Positions 2,811 through 48,840 of a stretch of 64,000 bases of DNA are shown piece by piece. Below the pieces are notes generated by a model. It saw only the letters and a program-made list of their open reading frames with translations. It was not told the DNA's origin and searched no databases. The DNA comes from Sedimentisphaerales bacterium (lineage in GTDB: Bacteria; Planctomycetota; Phycisphaerae; Sedimentisphaerales; Anaerobacaceae): assembly GCA_963708075.1 (NCBI GenBank), contig OY970194.1:4672001-4736000 (forward strand), written 5' to 3'. A program made the position numbers and the translations under genes. The stretch's first letter is position 1. The number at the start of each line of letters is the position of its first letter.

Positions 2811-2918
2811 CATCGGTCGCCCCCGAGGTTACGAACAAAACGTTGCAATCGGCGCGTGAAACCCTATCTTAGGGGCTTGGATGCCCGTTCAATGCGGGGT
2901 TTTGCGCAGGAAGAGTGC

Positions 2919-4040
2919 ATGACGAAACGCCTGTTGCCGATTTGCGTTTGCCTTGGCGGCCTGGTTCTGCAGGCCGGCTGCACCGGCACAGCGACTGCGC
3001 CGCCGCAACCCGAGGCGCAGGTCGTCCAGTCCGTTCAACGGCCGCAAGAACCCAATACCGCAGCCGAGCCCAAAGAGGCATCGCCAGAGCCGGAGAGCCG
3101 TGTCGCGGAGCCAAACGAACCTGCGACCAAAATCAAGAAACAAGAGACTACCGAGCCCAATGAAGCAAAGCCTGCTGAACCCAGTATTGTGGCCGTTGAC
3201 AAATCTGACGCCGCAAAACCCGACGCGAATGACAATCCGCAATCCGCAATCCGCAGTCCGCAATCGGCGCCCTCCGTCATCAGTACATACGCGGACCTGC
3301 TCCAAAACAATGTGCGGGAGGACGGCTCGGCGGACTACAGCAGCTTGCGCCGCCGGCGGCTCGAACTGAAGCAGATGCTCATGGAATTGAGCGAGCTGGA
3401 TCCCAATGGCTACGAGAAATGGTCGAATGACGAGAAGCTGGCGTTTTGGATCAACACCTATAACTTGAAGCTGCTCGATATCATCGTGCGGAACTATCCG
3501 ATCCAGTCCTCCTGGTGGCTGCGGCTGACGTGGCCGCCGAGCGACATCCGTCATATCCCCGGGATCTGGACCGATTACAAATTCATCGTGATGGGCGAGG
3601 AGTTCACGCTGGCCGAGGTGGAGCGCCGGTTCTTCCACAGGACGTTCAGCGACCCGCGGGTCTACCTGGCCATCAACTACGCCTGCCGGTCCGGCCCGCC
3701 CGTGCGCCGCAAGCCCTATGAGGGCGAGCACCTCGCTCAACAACTCGACGAGCAGGTCAAGGCGTTCCTCGCCGGTCCCCAAGACTTCCGAATCGACCGC
3801 CAGGCGATGGTCGTGTACCTGTCCGCCATCTTCAAGCCAACGTGGCGGGGCAAGGAATTCGTCGCCCGCTACGGCACGGACAAAAAGTTCAAGGACCGCG
3901 ACCCGGAAACCCGGGCCGTCCTGAATTTCATCAGCGGATACTTATCCCGCGAGGATGCCTACTTCCTTGAGACAGAAAACTACACGATCGAGTACATCAA
4001 CTTCGATTGGCGCCTCAACGACACCTCTCGAGGCTATTGA
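2919..4040 (+). CDS. DUF547 domain lipoprotein
   Basis: Lipobox LQAGC; motifs KLAFWINTYN, DPRVYLAINYACRSGP, LSAIFK, FDWRLN. Confidence 0.8.
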   Translation: MTKRLLPICVCLGGLVLQAGCTGTATAPPQPEAQVVQSVQRPQEPNTAAEPKEASPEPESRVAEPNEPATKIKKQETTEPNEAKPAEPSIVAVDKSDAAKPDANDNPQSAIRSPQSAPSVISTYADLLQNNVREDGSADYSSLRRRRLELKQMLMELSELDPNGYEKWSNDEKLAFWINTYNLKLLDIIVRNYPIQSSWWLRLTWPPSDIRHIPGIWTDYKFIVMGEEFTLAEVERRFFHRTFSDPRVYLAINYACRSGPPVRRKPYEGEHLAQQLDEQVKAFLAGPQDFRIDRQAMVVYLSAIFKPTWRGKEFVARYGTDKKFKDRDPETRAVLNFISGYLSREDAYFLETENYTIEYINFDWRLNDTSRGY

Positions 4041-5219: not shown

Positions 5220-6260
5220 CTATTGTGCGGTCGCGGGTCGCACATAGAATCGCCACAAGGGTAGATGTTCTCCACGATATTCTTTTGGGATGTTTAGCCC
5301 CAGTGAATCTGGCTGCAGATCAACACCTATTTTGCTGGTGGCATCAAAGATAGCTGTGAACTCTCGGTATCTCATCGATATCATGCTGCTAAGGGGCCCC
5401 AGCATCTCGAAGTCTTGACCTTTGGTTCTCTGGGCCGGTTCGACAATGTAGTCAATAGAAGATAATTGGCCGTTCTGCATATTGGCCACTGGTGCGGCAG
5501 ACTGCCAGTTGCCGTAGAGCATAAGATAGAACGCATAGTCCTTTTCAGTCGCGTCAGTCAAAACATCGTTGCCACACAGCAGTTCGATTCCACCTATTGT
5601 GAACTGCAACTGCCCATCCTGCGTTGGCGTGCAAGGTTTCTTTTTGTCAGGCATTACTCGAAGAACGAGAGGGGGTCTTGTACCTATCGAGAAGTCGCCA
5701 AGTCTGATCATCTCGTTTCTTGGGATCATGTCGACCATGGAGATTGAATACTTGCCCTGTGAGAGCTTCAATCGGAGCGGAGAGACAAGTGTCCAGAGAT
5801 TCCACCGCGACCAATAGATTGCGATCTTCAATTCTGCTCCTGCCAAATCTGCATAGCGCAACAGCTTGTCCAGGTAGTGTTTTCTGAGAGTGAAGACGCA
5901 TGGTGGGTCCCTCTTGTTGCAGTTCTTGACTTCAACGAGTAAGCGAGACTTATCCTTCAGGACAACCATGTAGTCCGGTGGCTGTACGTCTTCTGTATCT
6001 GCTAGAGGGACACCAGTATCCTCGGCTTTGATCAGGAGGCACTCTCCCAGAGAGGCCGCGACATACTGGAACATGTCCTCTGTTCGCAGACCGTGCACAA
6101 GAGCTGGGTTGTCCTTGTGGCGGATAATGGAGGCAGAGATAATGTCGAGGAATTTCTGTTCACTCTGTTCATCCCCAAGAACAAGGTTTTCCTCCCTACC
6201 GATGGCTGCAAACAGCTTCATTACCTCAAATGCTCTTGGGTCTCGTCGAATTCTTCTCAT
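5220..6260 (-). CDS. Hypothetical protein with PD-(D/E)xK nuclease-like motif
   Basis: PPDYMVVLKDKSRLLVEVKN; visibly more AT-rich than the core genes. Confidence 0.6.
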   Translation of the reverse strand: MRRIRRDPRAFEVMKLFAAIGREENLVLGDEQSEQKFLDIISASIIRHKDNPALVHGLRTEDMFQYVAASLGECLLIKAEDTGVPLADTEDVQPPDYMVVLKDKSRLLVEVKNCNKRDPPCVFTLRKHYLDKLLRYADLAGAELKIAIYWSRWNLWTLVSPLRLKLSQGKYSISMVDMIPRNEMIRLGDFSIGTRPPLVLRVMPDKKKPCTPTQDGQLQFTIGGIELLCGNDVLTDATEKDYAFYLMLYGNWQSAAPVANMQNGQLSSIDYIVEPAQRTKGQDFEMLGPLSSMISMRYREFTAIFDATSKIGVDLQPDSLGLNIPKEYRGEHLPLWRFYVRPATAQ

Positions 6261-6289: not shown

Positions 6290-7423
6290 CTATCTCACGA
6301 GTGCATACCGAATAAGTGGCAAGAGTATCCCGCAGATGAGGACGCTCCCAATTAGGAACCGGCGTAACCACGCGATCTCTTCACTGCGTTTTACACCCTC
6401 GCCAATTTCAAATATGACTCTTGGAAAGAGAGGCGACGTCCACATCGCAATTATGATAAGAGAATACCCGAATACCCAGCCACCAATAACTCGAAGGCTA
6501 GTACCGACAATTGGATGGTGGTGATGTTTTAGCATCTCATTGAGCCTATCGACCGCTGCGACCGTATTCGCATCGACATGAGCGCCGTTTGCCACCGCGG
6601 TATCATACACGCTAACTGCAGATTCAGCGGCAGCGTGCCATTCTTGATATCGTCCTTGGTCATAGATCGCCCCAAGTACTATAAGCAGCGCGCCGACTAG
6701 GAGAATCATGTGAGCTACAATGGATGGGACTCTGCGAATAATCGATCCGGACCGATCAGTCAGTCTCCTGAGACGGGAATACCAACACCTTATGTTTGCA
6801 CATTCCGCGGTGATTGATGCGGAAATCTCCTCGAACCCGCTTTCTGAGTTACCGGCGATCAAAAACACTATGGAATGAAAGGAGTAGATTCCGACATCAT
6901 CAAGCCACATAGAGGTCAAGCCTTCCGAGCTCCTCACTTGGATGCTGATGCCTGTGATCCTGCCCACCCGAGGGTTCCTCAATTCGAGGACCTCGCGGAC
7001 GGAAGCATATTGCTGTGCACCTTTACCAGAAAAGACCACTATTACTCTCTCACTATGTGTTGTGCCCGTGCCGAAACGCGTAACCGCGTTGAGCATTAAG
7101 GCCTCAAGGGCCAACAGCGATTCTCCCGTGACAACAAAAGCCCCGTACACCTCCTCTTTGCGAACACATCGCCAATCCGAGTCATCTGAGAAACCCAGCA
7201 GGAATTTGTCGAGTTTGTCTATTGTTTCTGTCATATGTGCAGCATGTAGCTGGGGAGCCACATCCACACCTTCCGCATCTTCTCCCAGTAGGCCCACTCT
7301 CCGGACCGAAGACCCTTTAGCATTCGACAGCACCACTTGGTTCCGGAGTAACAACCCCAATTGTAGAGTCACGCCGACAAAGATACAAAGAGAAACCAGG
7401 AAACGGCGAATCACACCAGACAC
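6290..7423 (-). CDS. Hypothetical membrane protein (start uncertain; alternative ATG at 7234)
   Basis: 377-aa AT-rich ORF with several hydrophobic segments, co-oriented with the nuclease-like ORF and 29 bp from it. Confidence 0.55.
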   Translation of the reverse strand: MSGVIRRFLVSLCIFVGVTLQLGLLLRNQVVLSNAKGSSVRRVGLLGEDAEGVDVAPQLHAAHMTETIDKLDKFLLGFSDDSDWRCVRKEEVYGAFVVTGESLLALEALMLNAVTRFGTGTTHSERVIVVFSGKGAQQYASVREVLELRNPRVGRITGISIQVRSSEGLTSMWLDDVGIYSFHSIVFLIAGNSESGFEEISASITAECANIRCWYSRLRRLTDRSGSIIRRVPSIVAHMILLVGALLIVLGAIYDQGRYQEWHAAAESAVSVYDTAVANGAHVDANTVAAVDRLNEMLKHHHHPIVGTSLRVIGGWVFGYSLIIIAMWTSPLFPRVIFEIGEGVKRSEEIAWLRRFLIGSVLICGILLPLIRYALVR

Positions 7424-7431
7424 TCAGCGCG

Positions 7432-7770
7432 GCCCATTCGACTTTGCTCTGGGCAGGCTCATCGGCCACGATCAGGATCACTTCACGCGGAGACGCGGAG
7501 GCGCAGAGAAGAAGCAGGCAAGGACACATTTCACACTCTGCGTCCCCGTTCGACTTCGCTCGGGGCGGGCTCTGCATCCGGGCGTGAGAAAACAAGATTT
7601 GAGAGTCCGCATGGGCTAAGAGCCCATCTTGCGAATCCTCGGTGTCCTCGGTGCTCTCTGTGGCTGAAAGAGCCTGGATTCCCGCCTCCGCGGGAATGAC
7701 ATTGTCGAAATCCGTGTCCATCCGTGTGAATCCGTGTCTCAGAAGATCGGTGTGCGGTGCACACCCTACG
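7432..7770. repeat. Cluster of several REP-like and short periodic repeats
   Basis: Two TTCGACTT(T/C)GCTC copies, CACGCGGAGACGCGGAGGCGCAGAG, ATGGGCTAAGAGCCCAT, CTCGGTGTC 9-mers, ATTCCCGCCTCCGCGGGAATGAC, ATCCGTGT repeats, GTGCACACCCTAC. Confidence 0.75.
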
Positions 7771-8010
7771 TGTCACAGGATAAGCACAACTGATAATTCC
7801 CACAGGTTTTCAGATAGTCTCTTAGCCCTTGCGGGGCAAGAGGTTATAGACAACCGATGGCCCTGGAAGGTTCCTTACTTGACAAACTCGTGCCGTGAGT
7901 TATACCGTGGCTAACGTCGCGGCAAGGCGGCGTACGGCGGCCTGGGTGCGGCCGGCCGCCGGTGACAAGTGAACGAGTGCGGATGGGGCAGTGGGCAGTC
8001 CGTGCCGGGG

Positions 8011-8745
8011 TTCTGTGGAACAAAGCCAATGGGCGGCCAGGGGCCCGTGGAGTGCGGAATGCGGAGTGCGGAGTAGAGGCCGAATGTGTGGTACAAAGCC
8101 AATTTGAGGAGTCCCAGGACGGCCATCGGCAAGCGGCGCTTGCCGCTGCCACCCAGCCCGGAGTGGTGAGCGGTTCTGCAAAACAAAGCCAATCGGTGGG
8201 CCAAGGGGCCGTGGGACTGCGGATTGAAGAGCAGGGCAGCGTGTTCCGAAATCCTGTGGAACAAAGCCAGTCGAAGGAGGTTCAAGTGGGAAGTCTGAAG
8301 TGTCAAGTAGCACCCCCGCCCCCGGGGGTGACCCCAGCCGAGGGCGGCTGGGCCACAGGGGAGCCGCCCTGCCGTGCGAAACAAAGCCAATTTGCGGATC
8401 GGGGCCTGTGGGTCGGGGGGCGGGGTGGCGGGTCATGGAACCATTGCCTCGGCCCTGTGCCAAATGCCTGACGGCGTCACTATGAAAGGGATGGATTCTC
8501 CAAAACAAAGCCAGTCTGAGGGGTCACAAGACGACCATCGGCAAGCGGCGCTTGCCGCTGCCACCCGGACTGGGGTCGGGCGGTTCTGCGAAACAAAGCC
8601 AATCGGCGGGCCAGGGGTCCGTGGAGTGCGGAGTAGGGGCTGAATGTGCGAAACAAAGCCAACTTCCGGAAGGGCTTTCATGCGAAACAAAGCCAGTTTG
8701 TGGGACCGGGGCCTGTGGGTCGAGGGACGGGGTGGCGGGTCAGGA
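8011..8745 (+). repeat. Array of nine ACAAAGCCA core motifs with modular variable spacers
   Basis: Cores start at 8020, 8093, 8183, 8261, 8381, 8505, 8593, 8653 and 8687. Confidence 0.9.
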
Positions 8746-8872
8746 GGGCGTGGCCTCGCCCCCTGCCAAGGCGGGACTTTTCGCTTGACCTGCCCCTTGC
8801 CTACGGTACAGTGTGACCATCTGAAATTGATGAGCACGTGGATGGTATCAATTCATTTGAAAGGAACCTGCA

Positions 8873-9313
8873 GTGAGACTCGAAAAGCGTGATGTCTTGT
8901 CATACCTCGTGGTCCTGGGCCTGTCGATCAGCCTCGGGTGCAGTAAGAAGAGTGGCGAACCGACGACTCCAAGCACGCAGGAAACACAGACACAGGCACC
9001 GGCAGCGAGTGTGGATACGGAGAAGCCCGTCGCTGAAATCCAGGCACAAACGGAGACCATGAGTGTCGATGCCCTGAAGGCCACGGCGATCAAGTACAAA
9101 GACGCCATCACCGCCAAGCAGGCAGAGATCGAGAAAGTGGTTGCCAAGATCAAGGAGATCCCGATTACCCAGGCCCTCGGACAGGAGGCCAAGACGGTCA
9201 AGACCGACCTCCAGAATCTTGAAACCTCTTTGAAGGCCCTGAAGGATCGCTTTCAGGTGTACTACGAGGCTCTGAAGAAGAAGGGCGGCGACTTGTCGGG
9301 CCTCACCTCTTAG
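8873..9313 (+). CDS. Lipoprotein, coiled-coil
   Basis: Lipobox SLGC followed by a Lys/Glu-rich helical region; TTGACC-N16-TACAGT promoter at 8785-8812. Confidence 0.75.
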   Translation: MRLEKRDVLSYLVVLGLSISLGCSKKSGEPTTPSTQETQTQAPAASVDTEKPVAEIQAQTETMSVDALKATAIKYKDAITAKQAEIEKVVAKIKEIPITQALGQEAKTVKTDLQNLETSLKALKDRFQVYYEALKKKGGDLSGLTS

Positions 9314-22443: not shown

Positions 22444-22584
22444 GCGCCGGGGCGCCGATTGCGGATTTCGGAGTGCGGAATAGAGGTCGTGGCCGACACG
22501 CCCGTTCATCCGCTGTTCAGAAGAATTGGCAAGAAAATCGCCTTCCTGGATTTGCCTCCCGTGATTTCTATTGTAAATTTTCAT

Positions 22585-43673: not shown

Positions 43674-44940
43674 ATGAGTATGACGATAACGGAAAAGATT
43701 CTGGCCCGGGCGGCGGGGGTGAAGACGGTCGTGCCGGGACAGTTGGTGGATGCGAACATCGACGTGGTGATGTGTCACGATGTGACGACGCCGCCGGCGA
43801 TTTCGATGCTCGTGGAGAAGGGGATCGACCGCGTGTTCGATCCGGACAAGATCGTGGTGACGCCGGACCATTTCCAGCCGGCCAAGGACGTCCAGAGCGC
43901 CGAGCTGCACAAGCGGCTGGACGCATGGGCCAAGCGGCACGGTCTTAAGCATTACTACAAGCTGGGCCGGGCGGGCGTCTGTCACGCGCTGCTGCCCGAG
44001 CAGGGCCACATCCGGCCGGGCGAGGTCATCGTGGGCGGCGACTCGCACACGTGCACCTACGGCGCCTTCGCGGCGTTCAGCACCGGCATCGGCTCGACCG
44101 ATCTGGCGGCGGCCATCGCCACGGGCAAGCTCTGGTTCAAGGTGCCCGGCGTCGATGAAGTTCGTGCTCAACGGCTCGCTGCCGCACGGCGTGTACAGCA
44201 AGGACGTGATCCTCGCCGTGATCGGGCGGATCGGCACGGACGGTGCGCTCTATCGGGCGATGGAGTTCGTCGGCCCGGCGCTGTCCGAGCATGTCGATGG
44301 AAGCCCGCATGACGATGACGAACATGGCCATCGAGGCCGGCGCCAAGAACGGCATCATCGGGTTCGACGAGGTGACCAAGGCGTATCTCGACGAACATCT
44401 CAAGGACAAGACCGACTACACTGTGTTCGAGTCGGACACGGACGCCGAGTACATCGCGACGGAAGAGTTCGACTGCTCGAAGCTGGAGCCGACGGTGGCG
44501 CTGCCGCACCTGCCGAGCAACGCGGTGCCGATCAGCCAGTGCGCGGGCAAGGCGATGGACCAGGCGTACATCGGCAGTTGCACGAACGGCCGGATCGAGG
44601 ACCTTCGCATCGCCGCCAAGATCATGAAGGGCAAACAAGTGGCGATCCGCACGATCGTCGTGCCCTCCACGCCCGAAGATCTGGAAGCAGGCGCCAAGAT
44701 GAAGGCTTGTTCAACGTCTTCTACGAGGCCGGCTGCGTGATCTCCGCCCCGACCTGCGGCGCGTGCCTCGGCGGCTTCATGGGCGTCCTGGCCGCTGGCG
44801 AAAAGTGCGTCAGCACGACCAACCGCAATTTCGTCGGCCGCATGGGCAGTCCCAAGAGCGAAGTCTACCTGGCCAGCCCCGCAACGGCGGCGGCCAGTGC
44901 TGTGGAAGGGAAACTGACAGACCCAAGAGAATACCTGTAG
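43674..44940 (+). CDS. leuC: 3-isopropylmalate dehydratase large subunit (frameshifted in this sequence)
   Basis: [47 protein letters not shown]. Confidence 0.93.
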
Positions 44941-44986
44941 GAAGAAAAGTACGAATATCGAAATACGAAATCCGAAACAAACCTGA

Positions 44987-45352
44987 ATGACGGAAACACG
45001 AAATCCAAAACAGTACGACCTGGAAGATCGAACGCTTGCGTTCGCACGCGATGTGCGTCAATTTGTTAAACAGTTGAAGCGGACGATAGCCAATATCGAG
45101 GACGGCAAGCAGCTCATCAGAGCGTCAGGTTCGGTCGGGGCTAATTACATCGAGGCCAATGAGGCTCTGAGCAAAAAGGATTTCCTTATGCGGATACGAA
45201 TATGCAGAAAGGAATCCAAAGAGAGCCGGTACTGGCTCAGACTCGTTGATACTTGTGAAGATCAGAAACGGGAAGTTCATAGGCAAGAACTGATACAGGA
45301 AGCCACGGAACTCATGAGCATCTTTGGCTCGATTATCCGCAAGAGCGAGTGA
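44987..45352 (+). CDS. Four-helix bundle protein (23S rRNA IVP / Avd-like family)
   Basis: YDLEDRT..FA, QLIRASGSVGANYIEA, SKKDF..RIRICRKESKESRYWL; AT-rich. Confidence 0.88.
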   Translation: MTETRNPKQYDLEDRTLAFARDVRQFVKQLKRTIANIEDGKQLIRASGSVGANYIEANEALSKKDFLMRIRICRKESKESRYWLRLVDTCEDQKREVHRQELIQEATELMSIFGSIIRKSE

Positions 45353-45453
45353 TGTTTGGGGCATTTTGTAATTGGAGTTTTGGGTATTGTTTCGAATTTC
45401 GATATTCGGATTTCGAATTTGAGATTCGAGTTTGAGAATTGATGAGGACGACT

Positions 45454-48751: not shown

Positions 48752-48840
48752 GGGTGGCAGCGTCAAGCGCAGCTTGGCGATGGTTCTACAAGAGTACAGT
48801 GAGACCATCGCCAAGGCCTGCGGCCTTGACGCTGCCACCC
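48752..48840. repeat. Long palindromic REP-like element
   Basis: GGGTGGCAGCGTCAAG...CTTGACGCTGCCACCC with inner TTGGCGATGG / CCATCGCCAA. Confidence 0.85.

Follow-up and report, generated by a model that had tools for sequence, protein, structure and literature searches.

The 64-kb stretch of DNA analysed here (the window) spans G000:C1:4672001-4736000 in a genome of 7.5 Mb (G000; 60% GC, 92.8% complete) and contains nine exact copies of the core word ACAAAGCCA, all on the forward strand, starting at positions 8020, 8093, 8183, 8261, 8381, 8505, 8593, 8653 and 8687. The last copy ends at 8695 and the rest of the window holds none; 0.28 copies are expected in the window, and a count of nine was reached by 0 of 100 shuffles. 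An initial annotation of this DNA had described nine clustered cores at spacings of 73, 90, 78, 120, 124, 88, 60 and 34 bp; the count is exact and all eight core-to-core spacings were reproduced. The array had also been called non-coding, with its cores in different reading frames. For the window copy this stands in so far as none of the frames stays open throughout the whole array; however, cores 2–5 share one frame within a 169-codon open reading frame, which is the frame of the gene-bearing copies, where the array forms the in-frame tail of a gene. This open reading frame probably survives from the tail that the ancestral copy translated.

Table 1. Features of the array locus, in window coordinates.
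Feature	Position	Strand	Evidence or remark
Core-free train of dispersed repeat modules, upstream	7430–7780	+	Sequence; REP-type palindrome at its end (7749–7769)
Element leader	7747–7968	+	79% identity over 223 nt to the leader of array A33, E 1e-48
Imperfect palindrome, TAA...TTA type	7821–7849		Motif matches the fixed-geometry 81/92-nt unit
Sigma-70-type promoter, TTGACA-N16-TATACC	7879–7906	+	Inherited from the gene-bearing module
Two predicted leader hairpins	7913–7961	+	Common to four paralogs; alignment, folding
169-codon ORF, cores 2–5 read as QSQ	7962–8471	+	No family match
Junction, core 1 in place of gene	7975–8017	+	Alignment to gene-bearing copies
Nine cores and eight spacers	8012–8697	+	Extended core consensus TG(C/T)GAAACAAAGCCAAT
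Unit 1, GCGGA(G/A)T heptamer family	8030–8085	+	Outside loci and spacer families
Unit 2, single arm of the REP-type pair most frequent in the genome	8103–8175	+	267 outside loci
Unit 4, AAGTG heptamers and double hairpin repeat	8271–8372	+	23 outside loci
Unit 6, repeats unit 2 at a distance of 412 bp	8515–8585	+	Spacer comparison
Region beyond core 9, a unit 5 copy	8698–8784	+	Weak terminator-like hairpin (8762–8775)
Host promoter and small secreted-protein gene, downstream	8785–9313	+	Promoter scan, homologous loci

The REP label given to the palindrome at the end of the upstream repeat train rests on its likeness to the GTAG-tagged palindromes described in the excerpted text of PMC3733652. 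This palindrome, the imperfect palindrome, the promoter and the leader hairpins are in register with three gene-bearing copies, after which the window sequence jumps to core 1, while the gene-bearing copies continue beyond the junction into a heptamer run, a ribosome-binding site and a gene for a 175-aa protein. The in-register leader and the jump identify the window array as an internally deleted copy, and the alignment indicates that it descends from a gene-bearing module whose gene has been deleted. The imperfect palindrome is likely a protein site of the bending-factor (IHF-like) type. The promoter-like site proposed in the initial annotation is present, with a −35 element that is invariant in four of four aligned copies, but its −10 element has C for the usual final T (TATACC, against TATACT in two of three gene-bearing paralogs and TACAAT in the third) and the site was missed by a consensus promoter scan of the window. 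The stability of the leader hairpins does not differ significantly from that of shuffled sequences (z −1.6). Homologous loci of the downstream gene, 14 in 13 genomes of the genus, all lack an adjacent core; because synteny on the upstream side is not preserved, they do not count as clean empty sites.

Elsewhere in the window, between 5097 and 7780, two genes of about 50% GC (5220–6260, with a weak nuclease-like match at E 0.02, and 6290–7423, with no match) lie between REP-type elements and the repeat train, cargo-like within a repeat island. At 44940–45440 a four-helix-bundle gene (PF05635, G000 4717026) sits between inverted heptamer runs, a pattern of a gene with its own repeat that recalls the core module; there are six such genes in the genome.

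The spacers of the window array had been described as reused out of order and as built from elements found elsewhere in the window. Spacer 1 does resemble spacer 7 (z 7.3), spacer 2 resembles spacer 6 (z 13) and spacer 5 resembles the sequence after core 9 (z 8.8), but the claim about order is weakened by further likenesses of spacer 3 to spacers 7 (z 5.6) and 1 (z 4.9): since unit 7 is also similar to unit 3, part of the pattern, the series 2-3-x-5 / 6-7-x-9, is also readable as the product of an old duplication in which a block of 412 bp was copied with its order retained. No sequencing run spanned the array. In one low-depth contig of run X1, position 8534 leads back to 8123 via 32 nt common to units 2 and 6, a jump that may reflect duplication in a strain, a circular form or faulty assembly and that is given no weight as evidence here. 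The outside copies named earlier, at 22459, 3234 (inverted), 21494 and 48752–48840, all exist; at 3234–3265 the heptamer repeat lies in frame within a DUF547 gene (2856–4040) and is read NPQSAIRSPQS. Genome-wide, five of the eight spacers have at least three loci outside arrays (31, 267, 23, 3 and 271 loci), and spacers 3, 7 and 8 have 1, 0 and 0, respectively. Among the 29 gene-less arrays, 14 begin with a unit of the heptamer family represented by unit 1. The unit 2 family recurs in three gene-bearing arrays and in other gene-less ones, and unit 4 shares 89% identity over 97 nt with an A19 unit whose neighbours differ.

Scanning this genome and its relatives for clusters of the core and grouping the spacers, both proposed in the initial annotation, place the window array in a large family. 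Genome G000 holds 348 exact cores, clustered in 38 arrays of 3–13 cores, and core direction is uniform within 37 of these. Nine arrays trail an uncharacterised 175-aa gene and the other 29 are gene-less (orphans). The genes were found by six-frame search with a short peptide motif; all nine motif-bearing genes are just upstream of cores, eight of them 570–740 nt upstream of the array, while in the ninth case an insertion sequence separates the gene from the greater part of its array. The best named relative of the gene is in a Sedimentisphaerales MAG, which points to a planctomycete. The reading frame runs through all cores in seven of eight intact genes, and arrays longer than 300 nt are fully open in 5/5 gene-bearing versus 4/26 gene-less cases, compared with 12–49% of random unit strings. 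Twelve of the 29 orphan leaders match gene leaders at E<0.001. Co-oriented repeat modules lie upstream of 21/38 elements, versus reversed modules in 7/38; by eye, no inverted-repeat ends or target duplications were seen at the elements. A replichore (KOPS-like) polarity was rejected, with 22 arrays lagging and 16 leading. One locus (L008, G000:C1:4778158-4780453) carries a frameshifted gene copy and an insertion sequence with terminal inverted repeats that splits the array inside a spacer.

Counting four core variants, we found the core in 24/24 genomes of the genus, at 10–1,063 copies against 0–1 for the control, and the gene in 22/24, with 1–23 matches each. Core copies rise with gene count (rho 0.78) over these 24 related genomes, which are not independent. 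Two queries found no gene in G006 (93 cores; 1,450 contigs) or G011 (17 cores; 880 contigs). More widely, the domain is found in 23,761 protein-cluster representatives at E≤0.001. Among the best 150 representatives, a translated core occurs in 126 of 146 tails and spans all three frames (82, 58 and 23; shuffles 1–2); read in all three frames, the tail core points to a constraint that acts on the bases. A phylum-wide profile search, with up to 16 candidates per genome scored, gave at least 12 matches among 151, a figure that does not represent the family's range. Acidobacterial relatives have another tail repeat, with GAAAACAAA in common with the core, and cores may co-vary with protein clade. 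The multi-copy Acidobacteriota relatives (L116–L127) have a longer core domain and 1–4 copies of a tail repeat GGGAATGT..TGAAAACAAA that includes GAAAACAAA. In one low-GC family (f36; L097–L101 and L103–L105) the helical part has a distant homolog, single-copy and without the N-terminal motif, in 8/8 genomes, followed in all eight by a conserved 28-bp site that resembles a dif site and in 7/8 also by an acyl-carrier-protein-like gene. This homolog is possibly a domesticated member.

Sequence searches of the 175-aa domain against Pfam, NCBIfam, PHROGs and the PDB returned no family, and the ESM Atlas gave unnamed clusters only, with no match for residues 1–60. The AlphaFold2 model of the domain is all helical (pLDDT 87); Foldseek searches of the PDB and a viral library with this model found nothing at E<0.001, and VIA-align gave a best Z of 8.0, to generic coiled coils, a weak match that does not show a new fold. 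Residues 48–178 match no catalytic family and no known fold, and they do not align to phage proteins (hhalign 0.13%). The N-terminus is basic (net charge +4), and residues 3–45 match phage proteins in the small-terminase position, the motif being present in 36/36 chosen phage proteins. The domain is matched at 67 viral loci, most at residues 3–45 alone, and 51 of these have a long next ORF; with near-duplicates dropped, 15/39 next genes match the large-terminase family phrog_2, and 6/16 scanned upstream proteins match small-terminase PHROGs, three strongly. On viral contigs (L136–L193), a large group of phage proteins in which the same N-terminal motif precedes a cysteine cluster is encoded immediately upstream of divergent large terminases undetected by Pfam; this group is likely an unnamed small-terminase family. 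The protein has no match in 50,697 curated phages, the core lies near 4/15 phage genes only (at one mismatch; about chance by rough estimate), and no large-terminase, integrase or phage genes were found beside any inspected copy. Searches confined to the open-access literature found no description of the family, and other papers may bear on novelty.

Comparison of the 38 arrays reveals how their units are related. Cores of orphan arrays are perfect in 219/240 cases, with a word of 11–18 nt about 99% constant, and the median identity of a spacer to its best homolog elsewhere is 82.5%. A homolog in another array exists for 138/223 spacers, and the 261 pieces fall into 22 multi-member families and 106 singletons. 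The order of spacer families is random, with 9 repeated adjacencies versus 8.4 in shuffled arrays. Where full-length homologous units occur in different arrays, at least one of them gene-less, their neighbours are homologous in just 3 of 162 comparisons, which are not independent, against 29/81 among gene-bearing paralogs. Units thus travel singly, with breakpoints at or near cores, and the variable pieces are likely exchanged whole between arrays. The earlier idea of a cassette-like array shuffled at the core gains from these observations as a description of the units, but not as regards machinery: none of the arrays has a gene for a recombinase, a reverse transcriptase (RT) or Cas1 next to it. 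Cas1 has no match in G000 at its 92.8% completeness; the one RT and four tyrosine recombinases of this genome are at least 17 kb from any array, the nearest tyrosine recombinase being 37 kb away, and 13 Y1-transposase matches lie elsewhere in the genome.

The spacers had also been proposed to sample the genome's other repeat families. In G000, 104/241 spacers have at least three loci outside masked arrays, against 15 random genomic pieces, 8 reversed spacers and 31–43 of 241 length-matched intergenic pieces, the last drawn from a crude gene call; the rate at which spacers match dispersed repeats is thus roughly threefold that of random intergenic DNA. Repeat content also follows lineage, as judged by four words hand-picked from the commonest array words, with counts in relatives that include in-array copies. 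The words TGCGGAGTGCGG and AAACCCGCCCCT occur in 12/38 and 6/38 G000 arrays and in 0/62 arrays of relatives (genome counts 72 vs 4, 8, 0 and 2, and 58 vs 0, 3, 2 and 2, respectively); CATTCCACTATT occurs in 6/22 G013 arrays and 0/38 G000 arrays (32 vs 0), and GTAGTCGGTAGT only in G007 arrays (4/20; 104 vs 12–27). When unique best matches were scored by blast against 250–340 kb samples, preference for the own genome was clear only for G000 (54/107) and mixed elsewhere (G013 14/39, G007 5/34, G019 1/11). The sampling claim therefore holds at the level of families: best outside matches have 73–92% identity in the 45 longest of 118, exact protospacer capture was not seen, and the same repeats also build mosaics free of cores. 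Within arrays the modules are strongly polar (27:0, 11:0 and 7:0, with 14:7 for a self-pairing module), and outside arrays they show no polarity relative to genes. Core-free mosaics are co-oriented likewise (11:2 for the heptamer with REP, some other pairs being mixed or opposite), so this polarity reflects a genome-wide grammar and is not proof of guide function. Four such mosaics (G000:C1:1203500-1204700, 4013000-4014400, 5131700-5133700 and 6222700-6223700) hold many repeat families in one orientation, whole multi-module blocks duplicated in tandem, and small gene pairs between repeats.

One type of unit is built differently. The imperfect palindrome is present in 119/614 units of at least 50 nt in G000 and sampled relatives, with a fixed geometry in at least five genomes: its right half lies 55–57 nt after the core in 106 cases and the next core follows 34–36 nt on (104) or 25–27 nt on (9), so that the distance to both cores is rigid and the sequence of the flanks is free. 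Helical phasing is not claimed for the two spacing classes, which are about 9 bp apart, short of a full turn. This unit is absent from the window array; the palindrome itself lies upstream of 20/38 leaders, against 8% of random intergenic stretches. Among regions picked by a prior core scan, inverted core pairs occur behind the gene in G016, G014 and G003. The fixed core-palindrome-core spacing, the inverted cores in relatives and the lack of a folding signal fit a DNA-binding platform better than a structured RNA; on DNA, the core likely serves as the docking site of the protein that the module itself encodes.

Taken together, these observations suggest a reading to which we give an even chance of being right: the window array, a copy without the gene, derives from a selfish module that encodes a protein likely to bind cores on DNA, and core-bounded units are exchanged by a trans-acting route. 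The module consists of a palindrome, a promoter, a small unnamed gene and a row of cores and is present in 38 copies in the genome; it would spread to new sites adjoining repeat trains. The 175-aa protein would bind the cores and gather them into a bent multi-site complex; units from core to core would then be swapped whole between arrays through recombination at the core, with an exchange enzyme acting in trans. Repeat modules may have entered the spacers because the genome's repeat families insert side by side with fixed polarity, and would subsequently have spread as units.

The uniform direction of cores in 37/38 arrays and the promoter-like sites before 21/29 orphans fit equally well with gene-less arrays that act as transcribed RNA, in which the unpaired, A-rich core would be a protein handle (a sponge) or units cut at the core would pair with repeat-bearing RNA or DNA. 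The promoter-like sites comprise 12 of sigma-70 type and 9 of ECF type, against 12.6% and 0.6% of random intergenic sequences, by patterns drawn up after the leaders had been inspected. The core is predicted to be mostly unpaired, between hairpins rather than within them, the modules share its single polarity, a weak terminator follows at 8762 and the downstream gene is co-directional with the array in 30/38 cases (p 0.007). Nevertheless, we think this unlikely: the array folds no better than shuffles (z 0.12), units have no specific closing stem (−9.2 kcal/mol for the own stem vs −9.3 for a shuffled partner), a model of one hairpin per unit was rejected, no Rfam family exceeds its threshold, and the promoters are inherited from the gene, the window −10 being weakened. 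The module polarity is met in core-free mosaics too, and the inverted cores, together with the rigid distances about a palindrome that does not pair, also speak against an RNA. Very little weight falls on the reading of the arrays as inert debris, a neutral NIME-like mosaic without a present role in which slippage and gene conversion account for both the copying of units and the uniformity of the core. Core copy number differs a hundredfold within one genus, cores persist in the two genomes where no gene was found, spacers diverge freely in random order, the 412-bp duplication is readable in the window array, and elements are located at the ends of repeat trains, all as debris would have it; yet the near-constancy of the core beside spacers of 82% identity, the palindrome geometry fixed across five or more genomes, the tie of cores to one gene family (9/9 genes and 126/146 tails) and the frame kept open through gene-bearing arrays argue for constraint.

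It is clearly improbable, in our view, that the module is a minimal parasite or decoy composed of a small terminase and a packaging site, which would recruit or block the large terminase of a helper phage and package DNA from the array onward. The N-terminal motif is common to phage proteins directly upstream of large terminases, and the excerpted texts on known systems offer analogies rather than tests: sites inside the gene's own frame recall the P22 pac site within terS (PMC11260489), the repeat-palindrome-repeat layout recalls lambda cosB R3-I1-R2, in which an IHF site separates two of the three repeats bound by TerS (PMC4856287), and SaPI small terminases redirect packaging (PMC6687093). 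Against this, the match is limited to 45/178 residues, the inspected copies have no phage genes beside them, cores near phage genes are at about chance level, curated phages yield no match, and unit swapping and new insertion sites are left unexplained.

A very large protein family without Pfam, NCBIfam, PHROG or PDB assignment travels with its own repeated DNA word, and gains a testable substrate in the core and in core-palindrome-core at fixed spacing. Its gene-less copies behave as cassette arrays, exchanging units one at a time and mirroring each genome's repeat repertoire, and so bring within reach a long-standing question, the way in which mosaic repeat arrays such as NIME and BIME come about in bacteria. 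They hint that a chromosomal parasite may have co-opted a DNA-binding motif of the terminase type, and warn that thousands of 'hypothetical proteins' have translated repeat arrays as tails. A tentative and rather unlikely extension is an undescribed class of selfish module, widespread in planctomycetes and beyond (23,761 protein clusters). Its protein, built around the DNA-binding motif of phage small terminases, would dock on arrays of sites belonging to the module, and these would form a running, core-indexed catalogue of the host's other mobile repeats; such arrays might serve for the hijacking of phage packaging, or might guide the protein to those repeats.

Several known systems resemble the core arrays in part. 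CRISPR repeats are 23–47 nt long and their spacers near-constant in length; here the core is 13–18 nt and units span 32–269 nt (median 78), G000 has no Cas1, and the best Rfam CRISPR match scores 23.5 bits vs a cut-off of 39, in agreement with the initial annotation, which had set CRISPR aside. TIGR arrays have regular dual-repeat units and a Tas gene with a Nop domain; the present units are irregular and the gene matches no Nop or nuclease family. Integron cassette arrays adjoin a tyrosine integrase and consist of ORF cassettes bounded by attC hairpins; core-array units are too short for genes and lack a unit-closing stem, and the nearest tyrosine recombinase is distant. CsrB-type sponge RNAs are expressed and protein-bound, with repeated motifs in hairpin loops; here the core is predicted to be unpaired between hairpins. 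What is shared with CRISPR and TIGR (the latter as excerpted from PMC12045711) is a promoter leader, a repeat-spacer row, one small associated gene and spacers that match other DNA; the core arrays differ in having no exact target match, in reusing spacers among arrays and in being translated in gene-bearing copies.

With terminase systems, as far as the excerpts of PMC4856287 and PMC11260489 describe them, the module shares repeated sites in or behind the gene and a palindrome between two repeats at fixed spacing. It differs in that only 45 residues match, in lacking a large terminase, integrase and replication genes, and in having at most 13 sites per array, variable spacers and tens of chromosomal copies. 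The excerpted account of RAYT REPtrons and REPIN/BIME elements (PMC3733652) provides another parallel: several spacer modules are GTAG- or GGTG-tagged palindromes, and a gene with its cognate repeat is accompanied by many gene-less copies. Unlike a REPtron, the core is not a hairpin, arrays collect many repeat families, and the protein has no HUH/Y1 or other catalytic match; its 175-aa domain belongs to no Pfam, NCBIfam or PHROG family and its all-helical model contrasts with a REPtron's HUH Y1 transposase, whose gene has GTAG hairpins on its flanks, which places the module outside the REPtron/REPIN class.

NIME arrays, in the excerpted text of PMC1797815, consist of a constant word, proposed to be a recombinase site, and 19–214-bp spacers of many families, with other repeats and insertion sequences mixed in. 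Both are thus intergenic arrays of a short constant word with variable spacers in many shared families. The same excerpt gives the NIME constant element, dRS3, as a 20-bp inverted repeat, whereas the core is non-palindromic and of one polarity, which separates the core arrays from NIMEs proper. By this account NIME positions are mostly conserved between strains and NIMEs have no promoter or dedicated upstream gene of their own, while the window array occupies a lineage-specific site and core arrays descend from a promoter-gene-tail module; core-array spacers, unlike those of NIMEs, are made of other repeat families. The core array therefore belongs to neither class, but works like a NIME array and, in part, like a REPtron.
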